DNA of 64,000 bases from Minisyncoccota bacterium (lineage in GTDB: Bacteria; Patescibacteriota; Minisyncoccia; UBA6257; JAVHQB01): the NCBI GenBank assembly GCA_036170905.1, contig JAVHQB010000093.1, positions 123-64,122 on the forward strand, in the 5' to 3' direction. A program made the translations under genes and the position numbers. Position 1 is the first letter of the stretch. Every line of letters begins with the position of its first letter. Positions 1,431 through 59,065 of this stretch are shown piece by piece. The notes below the pieces were generated by a model that worked only from the letters and a program-made list of their open reading frames with translations, had not been told where the DNA came from and ran no database searches.

Positions 1431-1442
1431 AATTTATATTTC

Positions 1443-2648: not shown

Positions 2649-2660
2649 TTTTTAACCTTA

Positions 2661-3908: not shown

Positions 3909-3910
3909 TA

Positions 3911-4956: not shown

Positions 4957-5042
4957 AAATTCCCCCTAACTATAGCCTAAAACAGTTAGTCTTTCTAAGA
5001 GTTATTCTTTGATATAAAGTTGTTTTCTTTAAGGTTGAATTA

Positions 5043-7299: not shown

Positions 7300-7315
7300 A
7301 TTTTATACTCATATA

Positions 7316-9503: not shown

Positions 9504-9559
9504 TATGAACCCCCTATTTCTTAAAATAGCAATTGCCTTGCCGGATATAACCGGATTTA

Positions 9560-10924: not shown

Positions 10925-10932
10925 ATTTATTT

Positions 10933-11982: not shown

Positions 11983-12027
11983 AATTTTGGCCTAAACGCA
12001 TACTTTACTTTAAACCATAACCGATAG

Positions 12028-21121: not shown

Positions 21122-23221
21122 TCAATTACTAATAGCTCTATTAATTTGTTGTTCTCCATATTCCCAGCATTGCGCTAAATTGCGCTTTTGGTGTTTTTTA
21201 ATCTCAATACAGGATAAACTAAAAGCGGGAAAAGTGTGTGCAAAAGATGTTTTGGTATTTTTTAATTTTAGTCGTATTCCGGTAAAATAAGGTTGGCTGG
21301 TTTTATTTATCACCATAATAATGATATCGCCATTATTATTAGAGGCATAAACATTGAGCTTTTCCGGTAAAGTAGTTTTTGCGTCTAACAAGAAACCCTG
21401 AAAATGCTTACTGTATAAACCAAGAGGATAATATAAGGGTGTCAAGTTATCCAAGTCATCCAGAAGGGCGGTATATTGATCGGATGAATTTAAGACGAAT
21501 TGCATAAAATAATTAAGCTGGTACTTAGCCATAATTCCGTATAAATCAGCTAAATAGAGGACTTTGATTAAGGGGTCATATTCCACCATTGATTCAGCCT
21601 CAATATTAAATTCTGTCAATGCTAATTCCGTCCCCGCATAATTATTCTCGATTAACTTCTTAAGCCTGGGCAAGATTTCAGCAATAAAACCAAAAGGCAG
21701 ATGGTAATCGTATTTATTGCTGTAACCGGCATTCCACCAGCTTGGGGTAGAGCTAAGAATCGTAGCAATAGCTTGCCGATGTTTCCCGGTTAAGTGATCA
21801 ACAAAGGAAGGAAAATAATGAAAGCTTAAGACGTCAAGAATCCTTATGCTTTGGGGATTTTCCTTTTGATTATTTTGAAAAGTATTGCATTTTTGCAAGA
21901 AATCACCTATGCCGGTTAACTGCATATCTTCCAGGCAAAAAGACGGGGCAAAAATCTTGATTTTTAAATTCGGGTTGATTTCATTCTGAGTCTTTTTCAA
22001 AGCAACGGAGATCTTCTTAAATAAGTTAAAATATTCTTCCGTTGAACAGGGAGTTTTTCTGGCGTCAAAGTGAACCTTATGCCAAATAAATGGCTCGTTG
22101 CCTATTTCGAAAAATTTGACATTATACTTTTTTGCCTGATTAAGATACCGCAAAAAATCTGCGGCGTCTTGCTCACTTATACATTGAGTAAATTTTCCTG
22201 CATTTTTCCCTTCCGGGGCATAACCTAAAGCATTAATCTGAATTAATGGCTCTGCCCCGATACGCCGGCAATAGGCAATAAATTCATCTAAATTTGTCAT
22301 GGTAATCAATCGATTGTTTCCGGGAAAAGTATATTTTCCATTACGCCAATTATACCTATCCATAAACGGTCCGCCTGCCCGTAAAATCTTTAATTTCAAC
22401 GCAGCTACCTTCTTTTCACTAGGTAAATTCAACCAAACTCCCCAATTCGCTCCAAAAAGATACGGGGAAACTTTCTGTTTATTTGGTAGGGAGTTATCAA
22501 TGATAATTTCAGCCTGGACTTGTTTAGGGGAGTATCCCTCCAGATCTAATAAGTAGGATCCGGGAGGACTACTGCGCATCTGAGCAAGATCCATAGAACC
22601 AGCAAGATTATCCTGTGAAAGCTTGGCCTCAAACAACATAATCCTACCCCACTGGTTATCTCTCCCTTTGGCATGCAACCCAAAGGACTTAACCTTATTC
22701 CATTCCAGGGATTGGCTGTAGCCTGGATTGCGCGGCTGCCAATCTGAAGCTATTTTAAAATCGGAAAAGGGCAGATAAATTTTTTGCCTTTTGCCTGTTA
22801 ATAAGAATCGGCTCATTAATGGCTTAGAGCTTCCTAAATTCTGGTCTTCAACAAAAAAATAAAAATAGATTTCTTTACCAGATTCGCCTTGAATATCAAG
22901 GGTAATCCCTTTAAACCCGCTGAAATCGGCGATTTTAACCAAAGGAACAAAAAAATCAATCTCCGGCCAAAGCCACGCCTTGGTTGCTTTAAGTTGGTAA
23001 ATAAATTCTCTTGGACGGTTATCTTCTTTGAATTTATTCACCCAGCCACGTGATGCCCCAGGCCAGCCTGAGTCGGTAGTTACCTGCCAATCATTGTTTT
23101 TTGGATCTAAAAGAGATAGCTCGCCTGCCAAAACAATATCGTAACACCTACCCCATATTGTTAAAAAAAATAATGAAGTAGAAATCTTTAATAAAAGCCT
23201 TTTGCTACAGGGCTTAATCAT
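21122..23221 (-). CDS. Secreted glycoside hydrolase, clan GH-A (beta/alpha)8 barrel, with an N-terminal beta-rich domain; family not resolved
   Basis: N-terminal signal peptide. FFEIGNEPF is an NEP catalytic acid/base-type motif. 699 aa. Confidence 0.45.
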   Translation of the reverse strand: MIKPCSKRLLLKISTSLFFLTIWGRCYDIVLAGELSLLDPKNNDWQVTTDSGWPGASRGWVNKFKEDNRPREFIYQLKATKAWLWPEIDFFVPLVKIADFSGFKGITLDIQGESGKEIYFYFFVEDQNLGSSKPLMSRFLLTGKRQKIYLPFSDFKIASDWQPRNPGYSQSLEWNKVKSFGLHAKGRDNQWGRIMLFEAKLSQDNLAGSMDLAQMRSSPPGSYLLDLEGYSPKQVQAEIIIDNSLPNKQKVSPYLFGANWGVWLNLPSEKKVAALKLKILRAGGPFMDRYNWRNGKYTFPGNNRLITMTNLDEFIAYCRRIGAEPLIQINALGYAPEGKNAGKFTQCISEQDAADFLRYLNQAKKYNVKFFEIGNEPFIWHKVHFDARKTPCSTEEYFNLFKKISVALKKTQNEINPNLKIKIFAPSFCLEDMQLTGIGDFLQKCNTFQNNQKENPQSIRILDVLSFHYFPSFVDHLTGKHRQAIATILSSTPSWWNAGYSNKYDYHLPFGFIAEILPRLKKLIENNYAGTELALTEFNIEAESMVEYDPLIKVLYLADLYGIMAKYQLNYFMQFVLNSSDQYTALLDDLDNLTPLYYPLGLYSKHFQGFLLDAKTTLPEKLNVYASNNNGDIIIMVINKTSQPYFTGIRLKLKNTKTSFAHTFPAFSLSCIEIKKHQKRNLAQCWEYGEQQINRAISN

Positions 23222-23276: not shown

Positions 23277-24305
23277 TTATTGCGCTTTTAGGGCTTTAGG
23301 AATTCTTTCAAATAACTTGAAAATTATAAATAAAACAACGGGAAATATTGTAGGCACCATAACACTTTTGCCATATATTAATAGGCATAAACAAAAAAAG
23401 ATTAGCCAAAGAAGCTTTATTCTTGGAATAGCCAACAAAATTAAAACAAAAAGAGGAAAAATAGAAATTACTAATTGCATATTTTTTAATTTTACCATAC
23501 TTAAGAATATCAAAACCGCTACTAAATTAAAGACTACTAAAAAAAGTAGGCTATCTATTAGCTTATAACTAAGAACTGGAATCTTTTTGCTAAATTTTAA
23601 AACCGGGAACTCAAATTTTAGAGGCAGCAAAAAAGATAATACTATCAATAAACAAAACATTATTCGTTCTTCTACTATGCGGGGTAAATCTGAGCCTCCG
23701 GAAAAAACTATGCTCCAGGTACGTATAAAATATATGAGAAAAAATAGGCATTTCCAATCGAATTTTTTAAATTTTGAACACTCTATAAGAAAATATACCG
23801 CTAAAAAATGGATCGCAAAATAAAACCAGGCCTCTATAGCAAAAAAATGGGCATTCCCGACTAAAAAATCAGAAAAACGGCCATCATAAAATTTCCATCT
23901 CCACCACCCCATATTTACCCCAACCGTCTCCACTGCATAAGATATGCTAGCTGCTATTATACCGGCAAACAAAAGTGTAGGAAAAATCTTATTGTTAAAA
24001 TAATCTAATCTTTTGGTAATTTTCTCAGCAATCGACCAGGCAATATAAAAAGTGAACATCCAGCCGAATATTACAGTTAAAAACGAAATTAAAAAAGGGA
24101 TATTTACCTGCGGGAAGAAAAAAGGTGAACCTTTTAACATAAGAGATTGAGAGCTAAAAAATGTTCCGATTTCCTTTCTCAAAGCTGCAATTAACGCAAA
24201 TAAAAAGAAATTGAACGTTAATCTAAAGCCTCGTTTAAAATAAGAATGAATTATCAATAAAGTAACGCTTATTAAAACAACAATGAGTAGCCCGATTGTA
24301 TTCAT
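23277..24305 (-). CDS. Multi-pass membrane protein, paralog family member 1 of 4; function unknown
   Basis: The four paralogs share these motifs: RxxLTFNFFxFA, GWxFTFxxAWxIAEK, GWWRW and FLIECSKFKKxDWKxxFFLxPFI. Confidence 0.5.
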   Translation of the reverse strand: MNTIGLLIVVLISVTLLIIHSYFKRGFRLTFNFFLFALIAALRKEIGTFFSSQSLMLKGSPFFFPQVNIPFLISFLTVIFGWMFTFYIAWSIAEKITKRLDYFNNKIFPTLLFAGIIAASISYAVETVGVNMGWWRWKFYDGRFSDFLVGNAHFFAIEAWFYFAIHFLAVYFLIECSKFKKFDWKCLFFLIYFIRTWSIVFSGGSDLPRIVEERIMFCLLIVLSFLLPLKFEFPVLKFSKKIPVLSYKLIDSLLFLVVFNLVAVLIFLSMVKLKNMQLVISIFPLFVLILLAIPRIKLLWLIFFCLCLLIYGKSVMVPTIFPVVLFIIFKLFERIPKALKAQ

Positions 24306-24961
24306 TCTTTTAATTTCTCTGAATAATCAAATCTAAGATTTGTGAAAAATAACAAACTGATTAATAATATCAAAACAATGTATTCTATTAGAAACAATAC
24401 CTGTCCTTCTTTAAATATTCTAAAACACCATGCTGGAATAAACGGTAAGATAAAAAATATCGTTTTCCAATCATATTTTTTAAACTTAGAATGCACGATT
24501 AGAAAAAACGCGCTTAAAAAATATACACAAAAGAAAAACCATTGTAGAATAACGAATAATAAGGCACCCTGATCCTTTTGCCACCACCCCAGATAGACAG
24601 TAGTTACGCCAATTAGATAAATAAAACAAGCGCAGATAACCCCGGAAATTAGTGTTACCGGCAATATTTTTTCTTTTAAACGATAAAAAACCTGCGTTAA
24701 TTTTTCAGCCGCTAGCCAACTAGCATATAATACAGATAATCCTAAGCAAGCCGTAGCCAAAGAAAGACCTACCGATAGAATTTTAGGTTTTATATCCAAA
24801 TTTATAAAAGATAACCCCGGAGACTCTCCTTTTGTAAAAATAAGCAAAAAGGCAAAGAAGAAGAAATTTAATGTTACAAAAAAACCTCTAAGCCGATAAG
24901 AATGGGTAAACAATAACAGCAATAAAGAAAGGCTAATGAATAAAAAAATAATTATATCCAT
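24302..24961 (-). CDS. Multi-pass membrane protein, paralog family member 2 of 4; function unknown
   Basis: Same motif set: GFFVTLNFFFFAF, ASWLAAEK, GWWQK, FLIVHSKFKKYDWKTIFFILPFI. Confidence 0.5.
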   Translation of the reverse strand: MDIIIFLFISLSLLLLLFTHSYRLRGFFVTLNFFFFAFLLIFTKGESPGLSFINLDIKPKILSVGLSLATACLGLSVLYASWLAAEKLTQVFYRLKEKILPVTLISGVICACFIYLIGVTTVYLGWWQKDQGALLFVILQWFFFCVYFLSAFFLIVHSKFKKYDWKTIFFILPFIPAWCFRIFKEGQVLFLIEYIVLILLISLLFFTNLRFDYSEKLKE

Positions 24962-24986
24962 ACTTAATTTTTAAAAAGAGGATACA

Positions 24987-26174
24987 TTAAAACCAATTAA
25001 ACATTTTTCCTGAGATAAGCTGGTTCAGGAATTTATCATATTCATTGATCAAACCTTTGTACGCATCCTGGTCTTTGATTTTAATTACCTTTTTAGCTAT
25101 CTGGTCGCAATATTTACATTCTGCGCATCCTATTAAGTTGCAATTATTATTTTTTAAGAAATACTCCAGGAAACCATCTAAGGCTCGATTGTCTATATAA
25201 ATCTCAGCTTCCTTTATAAGTTTCTTGGCTTTGATTAGCCTGAATAGATTAACTGAAAATGGGCGGAAAAAATACCTGAACTTATACAATAAATTTGGTT
25301 TTTGCAGAATAAATGTCCTAGAGGGATGGGAAAAAAGATCCAGTAAATTCCCATCATAACGTTGATTAGTATATGCTTCCACTATCGCCTGTATTCTTTC
25401 AGTAGACATAGTCCGATTAACTAATTTGATCATATCTATGCCGATATCTTGATAATAATGTAAATCCTCCGGGCGGATCCATTCGGAGCGGATTAAGTTT
25501 TCCGGCTGCTTCAATTTTAGATAACTGCACATTATAAATGAATAATCCAGCGAGAACCTTTTGCTTTCTTTATTTAACTGCGAACTATGCGAACTACAAT
25601 TACTGTGATAGAGCCAAAAAGGACAATTTTTTAGACAATGGAGATTAGCAATTAACTGGAGTTTACATTTTAAATTTTTTCTAATCGCTTCTAGCAACTT
25701 AAAATCCCTATTTACCTTATGCACTGATAAGGTAATTTTATCTGCACCTAAATCCTCCCAAAATTTCGCTTCCTCAATCGTGCTAACACCTGCTTGCGTG
25801 GAGATATTTACTTTAAATTCTGGATATCGTTTTTTGATTAACTGCAAAAGGTAGGAGACAGATACTGTAACGCTATCAACATTAACGGCTTGGAGCCAAT
25901 CTAGAAGTTTGCAAATATTTATTTGCCCCCTTCTGGACCACTCCATATTTCCTAAACAAGTGCTGTTTAATAGATAATTAAACTTTAATTTATAACTATG
26001 TACGGTGGCAATATACTTTCTTACGCTTTCTTTTGAAACCTGCGGCAGAATAAAGGATACCCGGCCGCCCCCTATTACATCTCTGGCTAATTTACCGTAT
26101 ATTTCTTCGACGTTATCTTTCTTGATTTTATGAATTAATCCAATATCCCAATTCGAAGGAATAGATAACCTCAT
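24987..26174 (-). CDS. Peptidase-U32-family-like protein (TrhP/RlhA/UbiU-type Fe-S enzyme family); paralog of 38146-39333 and 39311-40405
   Basis: The layout VDSVTVSVSYLL...VNISTQAGVST...LGADKITLS...LQLIANLHCLKNCPF parallels the U32 core VDAVIVQDLGLL...LHASTQ...LGVKRVVL...GALC. Confidence 0.45.
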   Translation of the reverse strand: MRLSIPSNWDIGLIHKIKKDNVEEIYGKLARDVIGGGRVSFILPQVSKESVRKYIATVHSYKLKFNYLLNSTCLGNMEWSRRGQINICKLLDWLQAVNVDSVTVSVSYLLQLIKKRYPEFKVNISTQAGVSTIEEAKFWEDLGADKITLSVHKVNRDFKLLEAIRKNLKCKLQLIANLHCLKNCPFWLYHSNCSSHSSQLNKESKRFSLDYSFIMCSYLKLKQPENLIRSEWIRPEDLHYYQDIGIDMIKLVNRTMSTERIQAIVEAYTNQRYDGNLLDLFSHPSRTFILQKPNLLYKFRYFFRPFSVNLFRLIKAKKLIKEAEIYIDNRALDGFLEYFLKNNNCNLIGCAECKYCDQIAKKVIKIKDQDAYKGLINEYDKFLNQLISGKMFNWF

Positions 26175-26295
26175 ATATCCTCTTTGGCGGTTGGAGACTT
26201 TGGTTAAGTTATTTGACTTTTTTCAACTAAATTATGCTCTAAATTCCTTATTAATACAAGAAGATTTAAGAACAATTATGTCTTGTAACGTAATT

Positions 26296-27123
26296 TCAAT
26301 GTTGATTATTGTGCGTATCGCCAGCATAAACTATTCTGTCTATCCTAGAATGTTTGATATCTTCAGGTAATGAATAATTTTTATAAAAAAGAGCGTTTCC
26401 GCGCATGAATATAGGACTTTTTATATTCTTATTAAAAATTTCTATAGTTGCGCAACGCTTATTAATACAGCTTGAGAATCTAAGTCCCTCACCAGGGCGC
26501 TTCATGTTAAATTTACAATAACGGCTTAAGGTAATGTAAACAAAAGGGATATGTAAAGAAAAATTAAATCCATTATTTATATCAGTTAAATCTAACCCTT
26601 GCGATACATTATCTAGTTCAATTCTTTTGACATTTTCTTGATGCAAAAAATTTAACAGGGATTTGTTCAGCCCTATGTCCCTGACTCTTTTTCTTGCCTG
26701 CGCAGGGAAAGTACCGATAAATTCAGCTATTCTGGGGTCGCGTTTTTGTTTCACCAATAAACGTCCCAGAGCCATCTTTAGAGGCAAATCCCTGCATACC
26801 CTATACATTCCCCAGTCATTTATGATAATCTCTGGCTCCGGGCATCCCTGTATGATATGTTCGATAATCTGTCTATATTGAAATATTTCGCTATCATTAC
26901 AATAAGAGGTTACCATTGTTAATGCTATGTTTTTTGCGTGAACAAATTCTACTATCTTTTCAAATTCACCCAAAGGAGGAATCCGCCAGTTGCAAAACTC
27001 GTTACCAAAATACAACCGGGTATATTGCGGATGCCATAGTTTTAATTCCGATAATTCGTTAATCTGCAATGCTTGTTCCATAATATTCTTATTCAGAAAA
27101 ATAATAACAATGATCAGATGCAC
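26296..27123 (-). CDS. UbiV-like short U32-family protein, putative partner of the adjacent UbiU-like protein; the true start is probably the internal Met (MEQALQ)
   Basis: RLYFGNEFCNWR resembles the UbiV N-terminus VIYLGEAVCSKR. The C-terminal 4-Cys segment CKFNMKRPGEGLRFSSCINKRC sits in the same place as the UbiV cluster ligands. It overlaps the next gene by 35 nt. Confidence 0.5.
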   Translation of the reverse strand: MHLIIVIIFLNKNIMEQALQINELSELKLWHPQYTRLYFGNEFCNWRIPPLGEFEKIVEFVHAKNIALTMVTSYCNDSEIFQYRQIIEHIIQGCPEPEIIINDWGMYRVCRDLPLKMALGRLLVKQKRDPRIAEFIGTFPAQARKRVRDIGLNKSLLNFLHQENVKRIELDNVSQGLDLTDINNGFNFSLHIPFVYITLSRYCKFNMKRPGEGLRFSSCINKRCATIEIFNKNIKSPIFMRGNALFYKNYSLPEDIKHSRIDRIVYAGDTHNNQH

Positions 27124-28114
27124 ATTTTCTGTATCTTGATCTTACTATATTCTTTGCCTTGAATATAAAATCTTGCTTGCTTATTTTATCATCTAATAAG
27201 TTGATTACTTCTTTAAGCAGTGCCACATTATTAATTTGATCGGTCAATATAGACCTACCTGCAATTTTGACATGGGAAATACCTAGTTTATAGAAATCAT
27301 ATATATTGCATATCCCGCAGGCATATAGAAAAGTCTGGGCTGTGTTAAAAATAATCCTGTTTTCTTCTTTATTAATTCCTTTTGTATGGAAAGGAAAACA
27401 ACAGGCGTGGCTATTTCTAACCATATGCCTATTGATCAATTGCAAAACTCCCTGAGGAAAAAACCGGACATATTTTTTTATTATCCTGGTTAAAAAAGAC
27501 TGCTGGTTGCAATTATTAATATTGGCAAGATTCCCATGCTGAAAAGAACAGTAACCATCGAGATTATAACATTTTTCATTTAGAACAAAAGCTTCCATAT
27601 TTAGCTCTCCTGGAGCCGAATCTTTCAATGCTTTTATCTCTTCTATATTCAAATGTCGATGCAGGATAATCCGTGATATCCCAAACTCTGCATATAGCTC
27701 AATCGCCCGGGAATTAAAAACTGTCGCACAAGAACTCAAATATAGCTTTATTTTTTTAAATTTATCCCTAAGCATTAATATCAATCCCAAATCTGCTACG
27801 AGTAAAGCGTCTACACCGCAATTTAGGGCTTCCTCAGCCTGACGCATGACTGCCAGAGATTGATTTTCATTATAAAATTCATTCAAAGTCAATATTAAGG
27901 GAACACTGTGGCGGTGGGCTATTTGGATTGCTTGCTTTAGCTCTGTTAAGTTGTTTAAGTTTGAAAATATATTTTCTCTCCTATTCAAACACGCCGAACT
28001 CGCATATTCCTGCCATTGAGTTTGGTCTATTAAACCGCAGTATAACTCATCCGCGCCTGCGCTGATCAGGCCTTCTATCTCATTAAGTCGGTTTAAAGGT
28101 GCTACTATTTTCAT
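27089..28114 (-). CDS. UbiU-like U32-family protein (O2-independent hydroxylase family)
   Basis: MKIVAPLNRLNEIEGLISAGADELYCGLIDQT matches MELLCPAGNL..AIENGADAVYIGLKDDT. VDALLVADLGLILML matches ADALILADLAMLEY. FVLNEKCYNLDGYCSF matches FAFGSLCIMSEGRCYL. The C-terminus ACGICNI adds further cysteines. Confidence 0.65.
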   Translation of the reverse strand: MKIVAPLNRLNEIEGLISAGADELYCGLIDQTQWQEYASSACLNRRENIFSNLNNLTELKQAIQIAHRHSVPLILTLNEFYNENQSLAVMRQAEEALNCGVDALLVADLGLILMLRDKFKKIKLYLSSCATVFNSRAIELYAEFGISRIILHRHLNIEEIKALKDSAPGELNMEAFVLNEKCYNLDGYCSFQHGNLANINNCNQQSFLTRIIKKYVRFFPQGVLQLINRHMVRNSHACCFPFHTKGINKEENRIIFNTAQTFLYACGICNIYDFYKLGISHVKIAGRSILTDQINNVALLKEVINLLDDKISKQDFIFKAKNIVRSRYRKCASDHCYYFSE

Positions 28115-29148
28115 ATCTTTTCCAGGCCCTTTCTATCAAAAGAGGCTTTGTCCCTGGTTAAAATTTTTAATAAGATTACCGAGATAACCGGTATTACCGC
28201 TAATAAAGCAAGTTCCTTAAACAATAGCCAACAGATAAGAACAAGAAACATTATTACTGTCAGGGGGATTTTTTTTATAGCCAGCAATATAAGAAATAAC
28301 AACGGAAAAAGCGATATAAGTAATTTTACATCTTTTGCCTTGGTTAAATCAAAAAACACCAAAATAAACAACAAAAGAAAGGTAATTAACATCGGCAATA
28401 ATTCTAGCCATTTATGCTTTAAAAAACGCGGTAAACCGGGCAATCTGGCTTCTGCATAATCAAAGCGTAATGAACTCGTAAAAGCAAGAATAAGCATGGC
28501 TATTAAAGCTGTATATTCCACACTTACTCTAACAGATTCGGGCTTAAAATCTGCTGTAAGACTATGTAGAAAAGGAATGAGAAAAAATATCCCTTTCCAA
28601 CTCATTTTTCTGAATTTCGAACAATTAATCAAAAAATAAGGAGCAAATAAATATTGGGTGGGAAAATGCATCCAGGTTATTATTGTGATAAAAGGAACGC
28701 CCACTAAAAATCTAGCCATTCTTATGTCTTCCATAGTCCAGCGCCACCAGCCAATACCGATTGCTGTAGCTTCCACCGCATAACCAATACTTGCCGTTAC
28801 CAAACCAATTAGAAGTAAGATAGAAAAAATATACCCTTTCCCAAAACTCAGCCTCTGAGAAATTTTATCGGCAATATACCAAGCTAAACAAAAAGTAAAA
28901 ACCCAGCCAAACATTGCCAGAAAAGTATTTACAATAACCGAGGAATGACCTTTTAGAAATTCATATGGCATAGCCGGATTTTTTGTCCATATACCATTTA
29001 TACGCATAGGGCCTTCTTTTAGCGAAGCGATAAAAAAAGCGAAAAAGAAAAAATTAAAGGTCGCCCTTGTTCCGTACTTAAAATACGCATACAATATAAA
29101 TACGCCTATACTCAAAATACATATTAGAATTGTAAAGATTACGCTCAT
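28111..29148 (-). CDS. Multi-pass membrane protein, paralog family member 3 of 4; function unknown
   Basis: Motifs: GTRATFNFFFFAF, GWVFTFCLAWYIADK, GWWRWTMEDIR, FLINCSKFRKMSWKGIFFLIPFL. Confidence 0.5.
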   Translation of the reverse strand: MSVIFTILICILSIGVFILYAYFKYGTRATFNFFFFAFFIASLKEGPMRINGIWTKNPAMPYEFLKGHSSVIVNTFLAMFGWVFTFCLAWYIADKISQRLSFGKGYIFSILLLIGLVTASIGYAVEATAIGIGWWRWTMEDIRMARFLVGVPFITIITWMHFPTQYLFAPYFLINCSKFRKMSWKGIFFLIPFLHSLTADFKPESVRVSVEYTALIAMLILAFTSSLRFDYAEARLPGLPRFLKHKWLELLPMLITFLLLFILVFFDLTKAKDVKLLISLFPLLFLILLAIKKIPLTVIMFLVLICWLLFKELALLAVIPVISVILLKILTRDKASFDRKGLEKI

Positions 29149-29160
29149 CGGATCAATTCC

Positions 29161-29901
29161 TTAAGATTTTAGATCAATTAATTTTGACCTGTTTAAAAAT
29201 GCCAATATAACGATGGTTATAAAAATTATAATCCGCTGGCAAAATACCGCCGTTTCACTGCCAAAAAGCCTTATCGTCCAAAGATGAATAAAGGGCAGCA
29301 GAAAAAAGATCATTTTCCAATTTTTATCCTTCCACTGGGAGCATTCAATTAAAAAGTAAGCGGCTAAAAAGAAAAAACTAAAATAAAATCCCTCCATAAA
29401 AGGATGCCTCGGATGACCGATTAAAAATATATCATTGGGAATAATGGGAACAAGCCATTTCTGCCAGTCAACTATACTTATTATTTTTACAATTGGGCAC
29501 AAAATAACACTAATTACTAAGGAGCTCAAAAATAATGTAAGAAAAAGTCGTTTTTTGAAAATATCAAAACATTGTAAGATTTTTTCGGCTATAAACCAAC
29601 CAAGATAAAATAATGACATCCATCCCAACAAAGTAATTACGGCAATAAAAAAAGTAAAAATAGCTTTAGGCTCAGGCGAAACTGAATATAACAACCGGTC
29701 CATATCGGCTGGTTTATCTGCTAGCGTCAAGGAAAACAGGATAGGGCTTATATCCCTCCAGATCCAAAACAAAATATAGAAAAAAGAAAAAAAGAAAAAA
29801 TTAAAAGTTAACCTGGACCCTCTCCTGAGACAACAATCCCGTATAAAAAATACAAGAGCTGATAATATAAGGATATTTAAAGCAATTAATATTGGCAACA
29901 T
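29161..29901 (-). CDS. Multi-pass membrane protein, paralog family member 4 of 4; function unknown
   Basis: Motifs: GSRLTFNFFFFSF, GWMSLFYLGWFIAEK, FLIECSQWKDKNWKMIFFLLPFI. Confidence 0.5.
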   Translation of the reverse strand: MLPILIALNILILSALVFFIRDCCLRRGSRLTFNFFFFSFFYILFWIWRDISPILFSLTLADKPADMDRLLYSVSPEPKAIFTFFIAVITLLGWMSLFYLGWFIAEKILQCFDIFKKRLFLTLFLSSLVISVILCPIVKIISIVDWQKWLVPIIPNDIFLIGHPRHPFMEGFYFSFFFLAAYFLIECSQWKDKNWKMIFFLLPFIHLWTIRLFGSETAVFCQRIIIFITIVILAFLNRSKLIDLKS

Positions 29902-29910: not shown

Positions 29911-31455
29911 TTATTTAAAATAATATACTTGCATTCCCCTGAATTCCTCTATTTTAAGGATCAAATCATCCGCGTGCATATCCATCCATTTTTTTAGTTT
30001 CTGAGAAACAAAGGGAGAATCACCCCAATGCGAACAAATAATCCAAATACCGGAATTTTCATCTTTTTTAAGCCCTTCTATGTCTATTGTCTGATAATCA
30101 AGTGACTCTTTCAAACACACTGCCGAATATCTATCGTTTTCATCTATATCATCGCCAAAAGAATTGTCTAAATAAAGTTTATTTTTTAGATCAGGAGAAC
30201 AATAATATTCAAGCGATGGCCAAAAACTATGATGCGAAAGGACTATAATATCTCCTTTGTGATATTTTAAGATAATATACTTCATTGCCTCTTTAAATTG
30301 TTTCTTTATAGAAACTACCCCGATAGAAGACCTAAAACTATTCCCATAATAATAATTTTTTAACGATATTGTAATTAAAATAACGGATGAAAATATTACC
30401 AGGGCCAGAATAACTTTATTCTTATGGAAAAACTCAATCCCTTTTGACAATATAATATAATAAAAAAAAGAAACAGTAATTAACGTACGATCTAAATATA
30501 TCGGCCGTATTACTTTTGAAAAAACCAAGATTATTACTGGAATAAATAAATAACTTAGCGATATCAATAACCTTTCTTTAGGGTTCCAGCCGGGACTGCT
30601 TTCATCTGTTAAGCTAAAAGATACCATTGCCCATATGCCGCAAAAAAATAGACCGGCTATCAAAAGCCCTGGAAATATAAAATTCAAATTCAAAGTATAG
30701 TAACCTAGGGTAAAATTCCCAAATATATGAAATATGTCCTCTACTGAAACTGGAGGAATCCAAAAATTATTCGTAACCCTTCTCAAATGTTCAATACAAA
30801 CAAACATCCAAGGGATAAACAATAAAAAAATCACAGACTGCGCAATTATCCATTTCTTAAATAAATCCTTGCTATATTTTTTGTAGCTAAATATCATAAA
30901 TAAATTTTGGGCAAAAATATTTATGAAACCAAAATAATGCGTATAAACACTAAGTGTCGTAAAAAGTATGTACCCTAACCACAATCCAATTTTATTTTCT
31001 TTTATTATTTTAATAAAAAAGTAGAGAGATACTAACGATAAAAGAAAAAACAGCGAATAACTTTTAACTTCCTGAGCATAATATATATGAAAAGGTGAAA
31101 CAGTAATAAAAAAGGCTGTATATAAAGCTACGCGTTTATTAAAAATCAGCTTTACAGTTTTATAACCAACAATAATACTGAATGCGCTAAAAATTACGGA
31201 AGGGATTCTGACTAATTCTTCACTTTGCCCTAAATATAACCAAAAATGCATAATCAACCGATATAATGGCGGATGAATTCCTTCAGTATTAACCTGAAAT
31301 AAAGCCGCAAGAGTTTTTTGCGCCTCAAGTAAAACAAGTGCTTCATCGTACCATAAAGATTTTGAACCTAAACAGCAGGCTCTTAGCAATAATCCCAGTA
31401 AAAACAAAATAATAATACCCAAATTATCTGACAATATTTTTTTAAAATTATTCAT
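29911..31455 (-). CDS. GT-C-fold glycosyltransferase, ArnT/PMT-like family (GT39/GT83-like); uses a polyprenyl-phosphate sugar donor
   Basis: Eleven or more transmembrane helices. SLWYDEALV is a DE-type motif in the first extracytoplasmic loop. Confidence 0.65.
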   Translation of the reverse strand: MNNFKKILSDNLGIIILFLLGLLLRACCLGSKSLWYDEALVLLEAQKTLAALFQVNTEGIHPPLYRLIMHFWLYLGQSEELVRIPSVIFSAFSIIVGYKTVKLIFNKRVALYTAFFITVSPFHIYYAQEVKSYSLFFLLSLVSLYFFIKIIKENKIGLWLGYILFTTLSVYTHYFGFINIFAQNLFMIFSYKKYSKDLFKKWIIAQSVIFLLFIPWMFVCIEHLRRVTNNFWIPPVSVEDIFHIFGNFTLGYYTLNLNFIFPGLLIAGLFFCGIWAMVSFSLTDESSPGWNPKERLLISLSYLFIPVIILVFSKVIRPIYLDRTLITVSFFYYIILSKGIEFFHKNKVILALVIFSSVILITISLKNYYYGNSFRSSIGVVSIKKQFKEAMKYIILKYHKGDIIVLSHHSFWPSLEYYCSPDLKNKLYLDNSFGDDIDENDRYSAVCLKESLDYQTIDIEGLKKDENSGIWIICSHWGDSPFVSQKLKKWMDMHADDLILKIEEFRGMQVYYFK

Positions 31456-31498: not shown

Positions 31499-32905
31499 TT
31501 AATTAAAAGAATAAGAAAACACCATATTTACGCCTGCCTTTATATAATTTAATAATTGCCTGAAGCTTTTTAACCTTAAGATAATCTTAATAATGCGTAA
31601 AGGGTGCAGGTAAAAACCTAAATTACCTTTTTTTACATATTGCGTAATAATATTCGCGGGTAATTGTGTTTTGGCGATAGCCGGAAAATCCTGTTTATCA
31701 TCAAGAATAAAACAACGCCAATAATCCTCTTGATGATTACTTAAATAATCTTTATACAATTGCGTACCCGGAATTATAGTAAACCTGGAAAATTGGACAA
31801 AGTCAAATCCCACTTTCCTGGAAAATCGTATAGTATTATTTATTGTGAAACGGGTTTCACCGGGTGAGCCTAACATAAAAAAACCAAAGGAAGATATCCC
31901 TGCTTTCCTGGTTAAATTTACAACATCCTGGATTTGAGAAACAGATATAACCGGCCTTTTTAAATTTTTAAGAATTAGCTGGTCCGTTGATTCTATCCCA
32001 TACATAATCATTTTACAACCGCTGGCGGACATCTCTTTCAATAATTCTCCATCGACATAATTAATATGGGACCTAGTAACCCAGGTAAAATTCAATTTTT
32101 TTGCTCTCATTCTTTGACATAGATCAATGGTTCTTTCTTTGTTTGCACTAAATATAGAATCATAAATATCAAGTTCCCTGATATCAAAGCGATAATAGCA
32201 TTCTATCATTTCTGCAATTACATCTTCAATCTTTCTTAGCTGAAGTTCTCCGCATAAGCAACAATAAATGCATTTAAATGAGCATCCTTTGCTTGTAATC
32301 AAAGCGGTAAAATTTTTTTTAGAAGAAAATGGGGAATAATATTTATGATTTGGCAAGAGCTCTCTGGCTGGGAAAGGCAACGCATCAATACTTTTTGGCG
32401 CTTCTTTCTTTTCATTAATAACTACATTTCCACCTATACGAAAACATAAACCGGGGATGTTGGAGAAATCCCCTTGATTATTAAAAACTTTTAAAAATTC
32501 GGGAAGTGAATCCAGTCCACTGCCAATAATAGCGAAGTCGATTTCTTTATGCTGCATTACCTCCCAAGCATATAAATCTAGTAACGCTCCCCCGATTATT
32601 ACAGGTATATTTATTATTTTTTTTACCACGCCAATCCAGGAAGTTACATTATGAAAAGAACTGGTAGTAACTGTAAATCCCAATAGATCCGGAGAAGAAT
32701 CTTTTATCTTTTTTATAACCTCGCTTAGATCAAGATTTAATATATTCCCATCTATAATGACTGCTTGATGACCTGCTTTTTTAATGATTGCAGCAACATA
32801 AGCTAAACTAAGTGGAGGATAACGCATAATCTGCTCATACCCACCTATGCCAAAAGATTTCTTTTGGTACTTATCAAACTGAGGATATATTAAAGCTATT
32901 TTCAT
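31499..32905 (-). CDS. B12-binding-domain radical SAM enzyme
   Basis: N-terminus MKIALIYPQF...PPLSLAYVAA...LLGFTV. TSKGCSFKCIYC is the CxxxCxxC motif. Confidence 0.7.
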   Translation of the reverse strand: MKIALIYPQFDKYQKKSFGIGGYEQIMRYPPLSLAYVAAIIKKAGHQAVIIDGNILNLDLSEVIKKIKDSSPDLLGFTVTTSSFHNVTSWIGVVKKIINIPVIIGGALLDLYAWEVMQHKEIDFAIIGSGLDSLPEFLKVFNNQGDFSNIPGLCFRIGGNVVINEKKEAPKSIDALPFPARELLPNHKYYSPFSSKKNFTALITSKGCSFKCIYCCLCGELQLRKIEDVIAEMIECYYRFDIRELDIYDSIFSANKERTIDLCQRMRAKKLNFTWVTRSHINYVDGELLKEMSASGCKMIMYGIESTDQLILKNLKRPVISVSQIQDVVNLTRKAGISSFGFFMLGSPGETRFTINNTIRFSRKVGFDFVQFSRFTIIPGTQLYKDYLSNHQEDYWRCFILDDKQDFPAIAKTQLPANIITQYVKKGNLGFYLHPLRIIKIILRLKSFRQLLNYIKAGVNMVFSYSFN

Positions 32906-34421: not shown

Positions 34422-35135
34422 CTAATTTATCGTTATATTAATGCCATTGATATCCTTGTCTTTTACAATCACAGGATTACTAATATAAGCAGCCCTAGGA
34501 CAGAGAGGAGAATTTCCGCTACTTACCCCCTCTGGAATATTTATGGCAATAATACAAACTTTGCCAATATCAAGAGGCACCTTTACACTAAAATCTCCAG
34601 GCTTACCTAAAGAAACTCTGGCAATATCCGGAGGAAGGCGAATTTTTTTAAAATGCTCCGGGCTATAAATACAAACAACTATTTTTCCATTTTTATATTG
34701 AGCAGATAAAATTTTACCTGATAACTTGATAGTTTCGCCTTGATAATCATCCATTAAAAGTTTATTTGTTTTTAAAATAATATCATAATGTAGAATATCA
34801 TCCTTTCCTACTTTTATAGGATCCGATATAAAGTAGGCAAACGATTCATGAAGGGAACCCTTATTTCTTGCGCATATATGTATATTATTATAATCCTTGG
34901 GAATTTTCAGTTTATAATGGCCTGGACCGGATAAATAAGTTAGCCCTTCTTGCCAGGGCATTCCAAGTTTTAATTTTGTAGTCCAGTAGAGCTCTATGCT
35001 TCCTTTTTTAAATTCATCATAAATAATTTCTCCTGAAATAGTAACATCCGGTTTAGGCTGCCGGTAAAAAAATAAAAATATCAGTGATAGTAGTAATAAC
35101 AGTAAAAAAACAAATTTCATTTTTTTTATTAACAT
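34422..35135 (-). CDS. Secreted or membrane-anchored protein of unknown function; paralog of 47668-48360
   Basis: N-terminal hydrophobic anchor. DDYQGETIKLSGKILSAQYKNGKIVVCIYSPE aligns with DNYEQATVKVSGNILSPDYKGLIYVSISTLE in the paralog. Confidence 0.45.
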   Translation of the reverse strand: MLIKKMKFVFLLLLLLSLIFLFFYRQPKPDVTISGEIIYDEFKKGSIELYWTTKLKLGMPWQEGLTYLSGPGHYKLKIPKDYNNIHICARNKGSLHESFAYFISDPIKVGKDDILHYDIILKTNKLLMDDYQGETIKLSGKILSAQYKNGKIVVCIYSPEHFKKIRLPPDIARVSLGKPGDFSVKVPLDIGKVCIIAINIPEGVSSGNSPLCPRAAYISNPVIVKDKDINGINITIN

Positions 35136-53636: not shown

Positions 53637-54365
53637 TTATTTAATTACACTTGATTTTCTGTTAATTACTTTAATCTTTGAAGCAACCACCAGGTCTAAA
53701 AACAGACCGCCAAAAAAATCAAAGACGTTGGGATTTCCCCTCCGGCAATAAGGGCCATCTATTAAATAGCTATTGTTAATATTATATCCTAACCGGCCTG
53801 CGATAACCCCGATTTGACTGGCGCAAGAATATCTAAAAGCAGTATAAAAATCTAATAAATCAGCAATAAGGGTTATTTTTAATATTTTAAATCCGCAGTG
53901 AATATCATAAAATCTGAATTTTGCTAAATACGATACAAATGCCGATGATAATTTATTTCCAATAATTCTATATAATGGATAAAACAAGAGGTTCCTTCTG
54001 GCAACCAAAAGGTCTAACTTATTGTCTAGAAAGTATCTATACATAGCTGTGATATTTTCCGGATCGTGCTGTCCATCAGCATCAATAAGAACAACGCAAT
54101 CATTTTTAGTATAAATTCCCAATTTATACTGCTTTAAAATAAAACTAAACCCCTGCTCTATGGCATAGGCCATCCCGTTATTATTTTTAAGAGAAATATA
54201 ATATGTCTTCTCTTTTTTCTTTACCCAGTCTCCTATTAACGAATCTGTGCTATCGCAAGAGCCGTCATTTATTATTACTATAGAACCTACCTGCTTTTCT
54301 AATTTCTGCAGAACGCCGATAACGGTTTCTGCTTCATTAAATACCGGAATTAATCCAATCAACAT
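53637..54365 (-). CDS. GT2 polyprenyl-phosphate glycosyltransferase (GtrB/ArnC/DPM1-like); makes a polyprenyl-P-sugar donor
   Basis: GLIPVFNE, IINDGSCDST and LIDADGQHDP are the GT2 DxD/DAD motifs. 242 aa with no C-terminal membrane domain. Confidence 0.6.
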   Translation of the reverse strand: MLIGLIPVFNEAETVIGVLQKLEKQVGSIVIINDGSCDSTDSLIGDWVKKKEKTYYISLKNNNGMAYAIEQGFSFILKQYKLGIYTKNDCVVLIDADGQHDPENITAMYRYFLDNKLDLLVARRNLLFYPLYRIIGNKLSSAFVSYLAKFRFYDIHCGFKILKITLIADLLDFYTAFRYSCASQIGVIAGRLGYNINNSYLIDGPYCRRGNPNVFDFFGGLFLDLVVASKIKVINRKSSVIK

Positions 54366-54379: not shown

Positions 54380-55939
54380 TTATGAATCATACCACTCGGG
54401 CTTTCTAAGACGCATAAAACCTGTAATTCCCTCAAATTTTTTCCTTCTTAAAATAGTATCCATAACGCCCAGAAAAAGCATCTTCATTGTATTGCGGAAA
54501 AACCACCAGTAAAGGCCTCTTTTATGTTTATAGGGAGAGAACAATCCTCTGATCAACCAATGTGGCCGGTATAATATATACCGCTTATTAAGCTCCATGT
54601 TCAACTTGGCAAATTCTTCCATCGATAGCCCATGATCAGAACGCATTATCGGAGTAGCCCAGTCGTATTTTTTAAAATCTTTTTCTGCCAAAATATCATT
54701 TTTTAAGGCTTCCTGGTAAAGAAATGTTCCGGGAACCGGCGCCACGGGATGAAAAGCCGGATAATCTATATCTATTTCAACGGCATACTTCACCAAATCA
54801 AGCATTGACTCTCTGGTATCAAAAGGTAGGCAAGTGATAAAAGTACCCTGCCGGAATACCTGCGGATATTTCTTTTTAAAAATAAGAAAAACTTCTTTTA
54901 CTAAATCACGGGTATAAACAGATTTTTGTATTTTCCTAAGGTCTTCCGTACACCCCCTCTCTACACCAATGAGAGGATGAATTAATCCGGCACGGACCAT
55001 TTTATCCAAAATACCTGCTGACTCATCCCGCAGCAGATAATCTGCCCTTAAAAAGGCCCACCAATACAAATCTTTATAATTCCTCTTTAACAGCCCCTCA
55101 CAAAAATCATTGGTCCATCTAGAATCAACATTGAAAGTCGGATCTGCCCAGATTATATATTTTCGATTATACTTCTTATAAACAATATCTACTTCTTCCA
55201 GCGTTCTTTCTACGCTCTTACTTCTATATTTAGGCATTACCTCCAGTTCGCCTTTTTCTATATCTGTTTTTAGGTGTTGGCCCCAAAATGTCCAAAGAGA
55301 ACAAAAATTACATCTATCTACACAACCCCGAGAATGTTCAAGAGTAGCACTTTGAGGCCAAAGATAACCAAATGGAGAATACTTTCCCATAGGCATAAGG
55401 TCATATGCCGGCAAAACAAGTGTATCCAGATCTCTTATTAAAGGCCGAAGAGATGTTTTGATTATCTGGCCATTATTCTTATAAGCAATACCCTTAATTT
55501 GAGATAAATCTTTCTTTTCTTTGAGCGCCCTAATTAACTCCACTATTGTCTCCTCACCTTCAAATCTTACAATAAAATCGATAGGGAAGTTATCTAAACT
55601 ATAGTCCACCATCCAAGAAAAGAAATGCCCTCCGGCAATTGTAATTATAGCGGGGTTGATCTCCTTTACTAATTTAAACAACCTGACGGCCTCATGATAG
55701 TAGAGAGCTTCTTCTCCGGCTCCGACCATATCTGGTTTCTCTTCTCTTATTACCTTGCTCAAACTTTCCCATCCTATCTTAAGTGGTGGGCAATCGATAA
55801 TTTTTATTTCTAGATCAGGAAACTTTGATCTTATCGCTGCAGCTAAGCAAGGCAAACCCAGGGGGAGAAGAAAATTGTCAGATTCATTTATAAATGGCCA
55901 CAGGAATCTCGGAGGTCTAACCAGTAATATTTTTTTCAT
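54380..55939 (-). CDS. B12-binding-domain radical SAM enzyme
   Basis: N-terminus MKKILLVRPPRF...LGLPCLAAA. HSRGCVDRCNFC is the CxxxCxxC motif. Confidence 0.7.
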   Translation of the reverse strand: MKKILLVRPPRFLWPFINESDNFLLPLGLPCLAAAIRSKFPDLEIKIIDCPPLKIGWESLSKVIREEKPDMVGAGEEALYYHEAVRLFKLVKEINPAIITIAGGHFFSWMVDYSLDNFPIDFIVRFEGEETIVELIRALKEKKDLSQIKGIAYKNNGQIIKTSLRPLIRDLDTLVLPAYDLMPMGKYSPFGYLWPQSATLEHSRGCVDRCNFCSLWTFWGQHLKTDIEKGELEVMPKYRSKSVERTLEEVDIVYKKYNRKYIIWADPTFNVDSRWTNDFCEGLLKRNYKDLYWWAFLRADYLLRDESAGILDKMVRAGLIHPLIGVERGCTEDLRKIQKSVYTRDLVKEVFLIFKKKYPQVFRQGTFITCLPFDTRESMLDLVKYAVEIDIDYPAFHPVAPVPGTFLYQEALKNDILAEKDFKKYDWATPIMRSDHGLSMEEFAKLNMELNKRYILYRPHWLIRGLFSPYKHKRGLYWWFFRNTMKMLFLGVMDTILRRKKFEGITGFMRLRKPEWYDS

Positions 55940-57132
55940 TTCTGTTTAAATAAAATTTTAACTTTGAAATAAATCCTGTACAGTAATTTCAAGATATTTA
56001 ATTTAATCTCTACCATAAAAAAAACTATATTGGATCTTTGCAAAAAATACCTTCCCTCTTCAGGCAAGATTACTAGACCCACCTTTAAATTGGGAGCCAT
56101 TCCTATTGGAATAGCATTTTCTATACATACCTCATACAATCTTCTAAATACAGGGATCATCGTTTGGCTTTGTGGCGGCGCTAAATGCTCAAGAACTGTT
56201 CCTAAACAAGGCCTAAAAATACAAACCGTAGATACCGCACCGATTTTTGCAAAATATTCAATAGCTTTTATGGTGCTTTCTGGAGATTCCAAACCTGCAA
56301 TGATCTCCCCGGAAACCCTGCCTTTACCGAACACTTTAACACAATACTCGATAGCTTCTAAATACTTTCTTTGCGTGATATACTTATGTTTGCCAGGGCA
56401 TATTTCTGGAAATTTATATGAATCATAAATTTCCAGGCAAAAAGAAAGATGATCAACTCCGATTGTCTTTAAATAATCATATTTTTTAAAATCTGGAGCA
56501 GGTGGACATTGAACACCAACCAAAAGTCCTGTTTCTTTCTTTACTTTTTTTATATACGGCCCTAAAATTCCTAATTCTTCGCCAAAAAGGTACCCGGTAT
56601 TAAAATGAACAAAGGTAATCTTCTCTTCTCTTTGCGCAGCTTTAACTGTCTCTAAAACTTCCTGGATACTTTTTTCATATTCCTCAGTCTGCCCTACGTT
56701 TAAGCCTAGAGAACAAAATTTACAATTAACCGGCGGAGTCATCCGCCAAAATTCACAGACTCTTGTGGGATATACCCCTAAATATGTCCCCTGCATTACG
56801 CCAATGCGAGACATAATTTTTCCGGTAGATGTCAGCTTATCATAAAATTTTGGCTTGCCTGGCAGTCTAACCTTACAAATAATTACATTATTTTTCTTTA
56901 TAAAATAGGCGTTACCGTTCTTTAATAAAACATAGGGCGATTTTCCTACAAAATGCTCCACAACCGGAACATTTACATATAAATCTTTTGCCAAAACTAA
57001 CTCTAATCCACTTCCCAAACCACCTCTGGTGCGTAAAACTGGACGAGCGTCATTAAGCAAATCACAACTGGCATCTATTTTGATACCCTGGCAAAATAAC
57101 TCTAATTTTAATAGACCCGGATTAATTTTCAT
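55936..57132 (-). CDS. Cys-rich putative Fe-S enzyme with a radical-SAM-like Cx10Cx2C motif; family unresolved
   Basis: YPTRVCEFWRMTPPVNCKFCSLG has Cys at 126, 137 and 140. Further cysteines: CQGIKIDASC, VQCPPAP, CIFRPC. Its stop and start overlap both neighbours. Confidence 0.3.
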   Translation of the reverse strand: MKINPGLLKLELFCQGIKIDASCDLLNDARPVLRTRGGLGSGLELVLAKDLYVNVPVVEHFVGKSPYVLLKNGNAYFIKKNNVIICKVRLPGKPKFYDKLTSTGKIMSRIGVMQGTYLGVYPTRVCEFWRMTPPVNCKFCSLGLNVGQTEEYEKSIQEVLETVKAAQREEKITFVHFNTGYLFGEELGILGPYIKKVKKETGLLVGVQCPPAPDFKKYDYLKTIGVDHLSFCLEIYDSYKFPEICPGKHKYITQRKYLEAIEYCVKVFGKGRVSGEIIAGLESPESTIKAIEYFAKIGAVSTVCIFRPCLGTVLEHLAPPQSQTMIPVFRRLYEVCIENAIPIGMAPNLKVGLVILPEEGRYFLQRSNIVFFMVEIKLNILKLLYRIYFKVKILFKQK

Positions 57133-57995: not shown

Positions 57996-58053
57996 AAAAT
58001 TTAAATACTGCTTTTGGATTTTTCCAATCTAAAATTAGTATACTCTAACAACT

Positions 58054-58906: not shown

Positions 58907-59065
58907 TTAGAATAAGGTATAAATAAATGGAGCTACGGCTGAAGACTGGGTAAAAAATATAAGTATTCCTAAGAAAAAAAACATAATAATGATAGGCGCA
59001 AGCCACCACTTCTTCCTTACTTTAAGAAAATCCCATAATTCTTTGACAATTGCCCATCTTGACAT
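58907..59065 (-). CDS. Unannotated 52-aa membrane protein, DUF5989-like
   Basis: Reverse-complement ORF MSRWAIVKELWDFLKVRKKWWLAPIIIMFFFLGILIFFTQSSAVAPFIYTLF. The Shine-Dalgarno AAAGGAGAG sits 6 nt upstream. It follows the SxtJ-like gene with a 14-nt gap. Confidence 0.55.
   Translation of the reverse strand: MSRWAIVKELWDFLKVRKKWWLAPIIIMFFFLGILIFFTQSSAVAPFIYTLF

Follow-up and report, generated by a model that had tools for sequence, protein, structure and literature searches.

A new family of polytopic membrane proteins with four ordered subtypes, encoded beside UbiU/UbiV-like genes in an envelope glycoconjugate gene cluster

Introduction

U32 enzymes of the UbiU/UbiV type are O2-independent, prephenate-dependent hydroxylases (PMC10990095), and the E. 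coli UbiU-UbiV proteins need a lipid-binding SCP2 accessory factor, UbiT (PMC6747719). Here we analyze a family of polytopic membrane proteins, four of which are encoded on both sides of a UbiU/UbiV-like gene pair at positions 23277-29901 of a 64,000-nucleotide stretch of DNA from a Minisyncoccota bacterium (GenBank assembly GCA_036170905.1, contig JAVHQB010000093.1, positions 123 to 64,122 of the forward strand); the whole stretch is called the window below. By position these proteins are a possible functional analogue of UbiT, that is, a lipid-handling partner encoded beside the UbiU/UbiV-like pair, but UbiT is a small soluble SCP2 protein, while the proteins considered here are polytopic.

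Other described systems resemble the family in setting or in architecture. The GtrA/GtrB/GtrC-type and ArnE/F-ArnC-ArnT systems share its setting, a GT2 glycosyltransferase similar to polyprenyl-phosphate sugar synthases together with several GT-C glycosyltransferases; however, the GtrA and ArnE/F flippases have no sequence or fold relation to the window proteins, which have 7 to 10 or more helices versus 4, occur as four fixed paralogs and carry His/Glu sites. The AT3-SGNH proteins (OafA/OatA), which belong to surface-glycan clusters, combine a polytopic domain, a linking transmembrane helix (TM) and a periplasmic domain, as do fused distant relatives of the family, and the AT3 domain has a conserved His in TM1 and a Phe-rich motif in TM2, as in the family. 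They differ in that 65 family members lack PF01757 and that the domains fused here are TPR, alkaline-phosphatase-type or beta-rich, not SGNH. LtaS, EptA/MCR, OpgB and BcsG join an N-terminal membrane domain to a Thr-type alkaline-phosphatase domain, as do six relatives of the window proteins (TxPxH in these relatives), but the membrane domain of LtaS and EptA has 5 helices, whereas here a family domain of about 340 aa is followed by a linker TM. Finally, the TPR-extended GT-C enzymes (PMT_2/ArnT-like) are polytopic, carry periplasmic TPR repeats, occur in the same clusters and have a conserved acidic residue near the periplasmic surface; the family proteins are smaller and have no conserved acidic residue in the first periplasmic loop.

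Results

Four paralogs of a family absent from curated libraries

The four open reading frames (ORFs), all on the minus strand, are located at 23277..24305 (342 aa), 24302..24961 (219 aa), 28111..29148 (345 aa) and 29161..29901 (246 aa), and are assigned below to subtypes A, C, B and D, respectively. Judged by similarity far beyond chance, they are true paralogs: their pairwise identities are 30-37%, with BLAST E-values from 1e-12 to 1e-62. The common core comprises about 230 aa, and in the alignment the other paralogs are 34-38% identical to the subtype A protein. The long forms, A and B, have an additional hydrophobic C-terminal extension of about 110 residues. The original prediction, made from the sequence alone, had described four paralogous membrane ORFs in two pairs flanking three genes at 24987-28114; both its coordinates and this arrangement proved exact, and the blocks RxxLTFNFFFFAF, GWxFxFYxxWxIAEK, GWWRW and FLIECSKFKKxDWKxxFFLxPF are found in the paralogs.

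The family had been called unrecognised, and all our comparisons agree with this. Scanning the four paralogs against Pfam and NCBIfam yielded zero families at E<=1. With 65 family members and Pfam at E<=5, there were only scattered single chance matches and nothing meaningful, and in the 48 long members Pfam matches were confined to the fused TPR or Sulfatase parts. PAP2, CAAX protease (CPBP), exosortase and rhomboid Pfam families were among those without a match, at E<=1 for the four paralogs and E<=5 for the 65 members. Sequence-profile searches of the PDB revealed no relative, either with a profile of the four paralogs or with a 65-member profile from the unfused-only alignment A5, which replaced alignment A3 after the PDB search with the latter had been dominated by TPR columns. 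Foldseek comparison of the subtype A model with the PDB gave no match (best E 0.48, TM-score at most 0.23) and identified no characterised family.

Individual candidates were rejected in turn. The family does not belong to GT-C: hhalign of A5 with the PMT_2 proteins of the window and other loci gave a probability of 0.4%, the best GT-C match in Foldseek was ALG12 (9s6t; E 6.3, TM-score 0.23), and the family-wide conserved feature of the first periplasmic loop is P-Y, with no conserved acidic residue of the GT-C kind there. Relation to Wzy_C O-antigen ligases and polymerases was dismissed on an hhalign probability of 0.1% with the Wzy_C proteins of two other loci (L001 and L020) and the lack of a PF04932 match, and AT3 (PF01757) and MBOAT (PF03062) on the lack of a match among the 65 members at E<=5 and of a fold match in the PDB. 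Comparison by hhalign with UbiA, TauE, polytopic GDSL proteins and the neighbouring proteins of 450-490 aa was negative throughout. A carotenoid hydratase or cyclase (CruF-like), suggested by nearby UbiA and FAD amine-oxidase genes, was rejected as there is no PF04240 match, and also because the FAD amine-oxidase gene lies in a GT4/GT1/ABC-2 block typical of glycan synthesis. Searches of the literature for U32 proteins linked to glycan clusters, and for Omnitrophota in connection with radical SAM and glycosyltransferase genes, turned up no description of this family or module. The family is therefore new relative to the searched curated sequence libraries, PDB sequences and PDB folds compared by Foldseek.

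It is not restricted to the genome of the window. A word-indexed homology search found 34 relatives, none of them annotated and the named ones all from metagenome-assembled genomes (MAGs) of Candidatus Omnitrophica. An exhaustive hidden Markov model search with a 36-sequence profile retrieved 275 representatives of clusters at 50% identity with E<=1e-3, of which 183 had E<=1e-10 and 71 had E<=1e-30. Most of the named sources are Omnitrophota, the others being MAGs labelled Planctomycetes, Elusimicrobia or Actinomycetota, and one Helarchaeota (Asgard) contig; a second word-indexed search, with A5, added little beyond one Asgard and one Elusimicrobia member. Thus, the family is real, rare, and limited to uncultured lineages, mostly of anoxic habitats.

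Predicted structure and conserved sites

AlphaFold2 modelling of the subtype A protein with the family alignment gave a confident model (predicted local distance difference test score, pLDDT, 88.1; predicted TM-score, pTM, 0.90) with about ten helices, in which small beta-bridges link the two main periplasmic loops. Loops at residues 24-28, 95-106, 176-185 and 227-243 each carry a charge of +3 to +4 and hence, by the positive-inside rule, are cytoplasmic, placing the N-terminus outside and the end of the 7-helix short forms inside. The domain is thus predicted to be a 7-helix core with N-out/C-in topology, to which the long forms would add a C-terminal helical bundle. No internal repeat was found by self-comparison of the family.

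The best-conserved residues among 143 diverse members are H20, G26, F33, F34, P61-Y62, G81-W82, Y87, W90, E94, E126, W134, W135, W137, W160 and F167; E126 and W134/W135/W137 are nearly invariant across the whole family. The topology puts the conserved polar and aromatic residues on both faces of the membrane. A predicted site in the cytoplasmic leaflet would be formed by H20 (TM1) and E94 (TM3), flanked by R25, S177, K185 and the FF motif at the start of TM2. A second predicted site, periplasmic, would comprise E126 near the outer end of TM4 under a beta-structured Trp/Tyr cap (P61-Y62, W134, W135, W137 and W160), and the TM3 aromatics W82, Y87 and W90 appear to lie between the two.

Four orthologous subtypes in a fixed order

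A neighbourhood search with alignment A2 gave 8 genome and 7 metagenome loci. Tandem sets of two to five family genes occur in other loci besides the window, and in a tree of 49 copies the family genes fall into four orthologous clades, A, B, C and D. The order D-B-C-A is shared by the window, L006, L007, L008 (with an extra copy, B'), L020 and L021, and C-A alone is found in L003, L005, L010 and L022. In 12 of 12 loci the gene for subtype A is immediately preceded by that for C, and in most of these the two overlap by 4 nt. This overlap is also seen in the window, where three U32-type genes (U32a, U32mid and U32b, in this order) lie between D-B and C-A. The window copies are about 40-57% identical to their orthologs from more distant loci and 68-82% to those of close relatives, versus 30-37% to their own neighbours. 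By sequence comparison, then, the four copies are ancient orthologous subtypes and not a local expansion, the orthologous clades and the fixed order ruling out a recent one.

The subtypes differ in the sites that they keep. Subtype A retains all of them. In the core B clade (the window, L006, L007 and one L008 copy), the periplasmic cap and E126 are kept while E94 is lost; H20 is additionally lost in the B copies of the window and L008, and the related B' copies retain both H20 and E94. Accordingly, the window B protein has an intact P-Y/E126/GWWRW cap, with Tyr in place of H20 and Asp in place of E94. Subtype C keeps H20 and E94 but has lost the P-Y loop; most copies lack the Trp cap as well, of which the window copy retains GWW. 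Short C forms have also lost E126, and in the window copy the P61-Y62 loop is missing and E126 is replaced by Gly. In subtype D the loops are altered, and its window representative, a short 7-helix form, has Asp at position 20, Val at position 126 and a partial Trp cap (DWQKW).

Fixed order combined with complementary site loss is what differentiated subunits of a single assembly would show, in contrast to parallel enzymes, and suggests that D, B, C and A are subunits of one complex. The notion of substrate-diversified copies in the original prediction is not borne out by these old subtypes. One irregular locus is L011, where a family gene (13924-14993) is split into two overlapping ORFs (109 and 250 aa) that jointly cover the full domain, owing to a frameshift or a sequencing error.

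U32 genes between the two pairs

The original prediction took the three minus-strand genes that separate the pairs for a U32 trio. Two of them are U32 proteins by Pfam. U32a (27089..28114) is UbiU-like, with a PF01136 match at 4e-30 and a conserved C-x6-C; its best NCBIfam model is UbiU at 7e-28, far below the cut-off of that model. U32b (24987..26174) is a divergent member (Pfam 5e-13) with a C-terminal CX4CX2CX2C motif. The middle gene, U32mid (26296..27081, 261 aa; listed as 26296-27123 with a GTG start at 27123, the ATG at 27081 being the likelier start), is U32-like only by fold and Cys pattern, as neither its product nor 52 homologs contain a Pfam domain. The protein is modelled as a TIM barrel (AlphaFold2 pLDDT 91) whose top PDB match in Foldseek is the U32 peptidase Mk0906 (5d88; E 3.3e-4, TM-score 0.50), and the match of its profile to the UbiU-like profile is weak but in register (hhalign 42%, E 2.7e-4). 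C30, C189 and C205 are invariant and C210 is nearly so, a 1+3 pattern; the [4Fe-4S] cluster of UbiV is ligated by C39, C180, C193 and C197 (PMC6747719). Given the fold, the profile match and the UbiV-like Cys spacing, U32a and U32mid look like a UbiU/UbiV-type heterodimer, a putative Fe-S hydroxylase pair.

We compared 11 Omnitrophota-type loci, each 8 kb or longer and some of them closely related to each other. The pair directly adjoins a family gene in 8 of the 11, that is, in all except L001, L011 and the short L008. The stop of the subtype B gene overlaps the start of U32a by 4 nt both in the window and in L020. Thus, a working association of the membrane proteins with U32 proteins, as originally supposed, is consistent with the adjacency in most loci, but the link is not universal: no U32 gene accompanies the family in L001, L011, the Asgard locus or with any fusion protein. 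This incomplete association, and a substrate that is probably not ubiquinone, distinguish the locus from the UbiU-UbiV-UbiT system. The trio varies in U32b, which is missing from L006, L007 and L020. Together with two paralogs at 38146-39333 and 39311-40405 it forms a group of three divergent U32-like proteins, 39-44% identical, each with a C-terminal CX4CX2CX2C that suggests an extra Fe-S cluster; one of the three has a weak Radical_SAM match (E 0.005).

Domain fusions in distant relatives

Among the 48 members longer than 400 aa, 29 have C-terminal TPR repeats and 6 a PF00884 domain. In all 48, E126 and two Trp residues are invariant, with W134/W135/W137 invariant or nearly so. Two proteins, P0047 and P0056, carry a C-terminal beta-rich domain homologous (E 6e-18 and 1e-12) to the product of window ORF 34422..35135 (minus strand; 237 aa, no Pfam domain), which makes the fusion a Rosetta-stone link between this ORF and the family; a homolog of the ORF is also found directly upstream of the family array in L011. 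A second signal-anchored beta-rich protein without a Pfam domain (47668-48360), weakly similar to the first (E 0.002), is conserved beside a GT-C gene in L003.

All fusions share one layout downstream of the family domain: a K/R-rich stretch, then one extra hydrophobic helix, then the soluble domain. The protein encoded by 34422-35135 has a simple N-in/C-out signal-anchor layout. Hence, the fused domains most likely lie outside the cytoplasm, with the family domain ending inside it, in keeping with the basic C-terminal tails that the long forms have. In the PF00884 fusions, T-x-P-x-H aligns with C-x-P-S-R of solved sulfatases. The closest sequences are S1 sulfatases, nearer than EptA; however, the formylglycine motif C/S-x-P-x-R is absent from the active-site position in all six proteins; it occurs once, as STPDR, at residue 740 of P0099, some 270 residues farther downstream. 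A true S1 sulfatase is thereby rejected, and the replaced motif makes the fused domain a Thr-type domain of the alkaline phosphatase superfamily. The window's own proteins have no such domain.

One TPR-fused member (L017, about 29% identity) is encoded beside orthologs of the window UbiA (41%), radical SAM (54%) and TauE (43%) proteins, which in the window form a module at 55936..58806 on the minus strand, with a radical SAM protein of 398 aa. The counterpart of this module, whose radical SAM protein is a "variant" one, lies at 5443-9630 in L017, where a polyprenyl synthase is also encoded.

Gene content of the window and related loci

Profile scanning of every ORF of at least 150 aa in the 64 kb revealed one very large cluster, almost entirely on the minus strand, for an envelope glycoconjugate pathway of an anaerobe. 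It contains at least seven radical SAM/SPASM genes, seven B12-binding radical SAM genes, at least five GT-C (PMT_2) genes, five U32-like genes, GT2, GT1 and GT4 (WecA/MraY-type) glycosyltransferases, an ABC-2 exporter, two carbamoyltransferases, a polysaccharide deacetylase, an asparagine-synthase-like pair, a GH44-like hydrolase and the UbiA, radical SAM and TauE module. The immediate neighbours of the family genes, all on the minus strand, are a GH44-like glycoside hydrolase gene (21122..23221) directly downstream of subtype A, as in L020, L021 and L028, and a GT-C (PMT_2) gene (29911..31455) directly upstream of subtype D, with a gene for a B12-binding radical SAM protein (31499..32905) farther upstream. 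GT-C genes recur next to the family, and B12-binding radical SAM genes are its most constant neighbour class: among the 11 Omnitrophota-type loci the latter are present in all and GT-C in eight, so that both are more constant partners of the family than U32. A small GT2 (53637..54365, minus strand, 242 aa) has weak similarity to polyprenyl-phosphate sugar synthases (PpgS, ArnC), and similar GT2 genes adjoin family genes in L001, L003, L009, L019 and L022. One of these loci, L019, is the Helarchaeota MAG contig, in which a 287-aa family member (8001-8864) is accompanied by three B12-binding radical SAM genes, a 242-aa GT2 and a GT-C, and by no U32; these shared neighbours suggest transfer of the module between domains or a mis-binned contig.

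Several other features of the cluster were noted. The density of radical SAM genes, at least 17 in 64 kb including the seven B12-binding ones and those at 55936-57132 and 61453-62541, is unusual for a glycan cluster; seven of them, five with SPASM, lie at 282-13917, where they are followed by a GT2-radical SAM/SPASM fusion (12028-13917). The ATPase of the ABC-2 exporter (13918-16632) has 904 aa, far more than a plain nucleotide-binding subunit; the additional length may correspond to a large Wzt-like extension at the C-terminus, which could serve to bind the exported glycan. Two GT-C (PMT_2) genes of 537 aa each (48394-50007 and 50041-51654) form a tandem duplication of a 1,647-bp unit at 48361-51654, with 1,635 of 1,647 bases identical and the differences clustered at one end; the duplication is either a very recent event or an assembly artefact. 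Large GDSL/SGNH proteins of 921-930 aa with about nine hydrophobic segments are encoded within the family/U32 block in L003 (11036-13801) and L028 (3461-6253), and have no counterpart in the window.

Discussion

Our analysis revealed neither Wzx nor GtrA nor SCP2/UbiT-type proteins among the window ORFs of at least 150 aa, yet GT-C enzymes, a PpgS/ArnC-like GT2 and a UbiU/UbiV-like pair are present, which leaves a lipid-handling or flipping function unaccounted for. We tentatively propose that the family could supply it, as a hetero-oligomeric inner-membrane module translocating or presenting a lipid-linked sugar between cytoplasmic tailoring enzymes and periplasmic GT-C enzymes, a reading that may well be wrong. 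The D, B, C and A subunits would assemble into one such module and bind a polyprenyl-phosphate-linked sugar or glycan intermediate at the cytoplasmic face, where the putative UbiU/UbiV-like Fe-S hydroxylase pair and B12-binding radical SAM enzymes may act on it. The module would then translocate the substrate, or present it, at the periplasmic face, where it would be used by GT-C enzymes or, in distant relatives, by the fused TPR, alkaline-phosphatase-type or beta-rich domain. Complex formation, substrate, direction and translocation are all points that we infer. A module of this kind would fill two gaps, as the scan found no Wzx/GtrA-type flippase to go with the GT2 and GT-C genes and no UbiT-like partner for the U32 pair. 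The U32 pair is embedded among the family membrane proteins and translationally coupled to them, and the two conserved sites have been lost independently, H20/E94 in subtype B and the Trp cap in subtype C, both of which speak for the proposal.

Other findings weigh against it. The family has no homology to known flippases or transporters and no transporter-like internal repeat, and a conserved His/Glu pair would be more expected of a catalyst than of a passive translocator. Export of a polymer could be accounted for by the ABC-2 exporter of the window, and a flippase of GtrA size could lie below the 150-aa limit of the scan. Among the small intergenic ORFs listed for 58.7-63.4 kb, the only free membrane ORFs are two near a carbamoyltransferase gene (59487-61304); these ORFs, 58907-59065 (52 aa) and 59080-59481 (133 aa), lie just downstream of it and presumably resemble the SxtK/SxtJ-type small proteins that accompany carbamoyltransferases. 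In the model, residues 298-332 form a single last helix of 35 residues, which is at odds with a cytoplasmic C-terminus, since the latter requires an odd number of passes; this implies that the last helix is in fact a hairpin or that one of the C-terminal helices fails to cross the membrane. Finally, fusion proteins other than the L017 member stand alone, with no GT-C, GT2 or U32 neighbours, so that the domain does not depend on these partners. This independence, together with the His/Glu pair, argues against too specific a functional reading.

The periplasmic site could instead belong to an enzyme. A new, non-homologous, periplasm-facing glycosyltransferase, polymerase or ligase, with E126 as the base, the Trp/Tyr cap binding the sugar and the degenerate subtypes as non-catalytic partners, would explain why the 48 fused members show little or no variation at E126 and W134/W135/W137, and it suits both the glycan clusters with a GH44-like hydrolase gene directly downstream and the TPR fusions, an architecture typical of GT-C and O-antigen-ligase-like enzymes that act on proteins or glycans. 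We nevertheless consider it doubtful, since there is no conserved periplasmic basic residue to bind a lipid-phosphate donor, the most widely retained residues (H20, F33, F34, Y87, W90, E94, S177, W184 and K185) are in the cytoplasmic half, and the periplasmic cap is the very part lost in whole subtypes; moreover, GT-C or Wzy_C similarity in fold or profile is lacking and the clusters already have 4-6 GT-C enzymes. The cytoplasmic site leads to another possibility, a transmembrane group-transfer enzyme resembling AT3-SGNH or MBOAT, in which H20/E94 takes a group from a cytoplasmic donor and a periplasmic partner decorates the glycan. The layout of the fusions, a polytopic domain ending in the cytoplasm, one linking TM and a periplasmic domain, matches that of the OafA/OatA-type AT3-SGNH proteins, the TM1 His is followed about 12 residues on by the FF motif of TM2, and the large polytopic GDSL/SGNH proteins of L003 and L028 lie within the family/U32 block. 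Still, such an enzyme seems unlikely: neither Acyl_transf_3 nor MBOAT is matched at E<=5, nor a solved membrane acyltransferase by Foldseek, the fused catalytic domains are of the alkaline phosphatase type, not SGNH, the window encodes no SGNH protein, and the parallel with the AT3 motif is a putative one.

Two explanations remain, each of which we regard as very improbable. Polytopic proteins with conserved charged residues within the membrane, adjoining prephenate-dependent-type U32 and B12 enzymes and, near a distant member, a TauE permease, might transport a small solute for the neighbouring enzymes, e.g., prephenate, cobalamin, a sulfur compound or a sugar; but there is neither an internal repeat nor similarity to a transporter fold or family, four fixed paralogs with degenerate sites would be unusual, and TPR and alkaline-phosphatase-type fusions are atypical of solute carriers. 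A non-catalytic scaffold or anchor organising periplasmic and cytoplasmic enzymes of the pathway would agree with the varied soluble fusion domains, the translational coupling to U32a and the loss of catalytic-looking residues in some subtypes, whereas the intramembrane His, Glu and Trp residues, near-invariant across bacteria and the archaeon, are more than an anchor would need.

A bolder form of the proposed lipid-linked sugar module, which we put forward as an unlikely case, is a structurally new four-subunit machine that physically couples cytoplasmic anaerobic tailoring, by a prephenate-type U32 hydroxylase pair docked on subunit B and by B12-binding radical SAM enzymes, to periplasmic glycosylation and flips the modified polyprenyl-phosphate sugar; it would be a new kind of translocase for lipid-linked sugars. 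To our knowledge, the carrier of polyprenyl-phosphate sugar donors to GT-C enzymes is unassigned in many bacteria, archaea and eukaryotes. If the proposal is true, the family would supply the missing step that moves these donors to GT-C enzymes, provide the first membrane partner of U32 O2-independent hydroxylases outside quinone and RNA modification, and suggest that envelope glycans or lipids are hydroxylated anaerobically. Even if no function is assigned to it, the family is defined by at least 275 sequence clusters and a confident model with no solved relative in the PDB, and its subunit-like organisation and three types of fusion offer experimental handles in Omnitrophota, a phylum with almost no cultured members.

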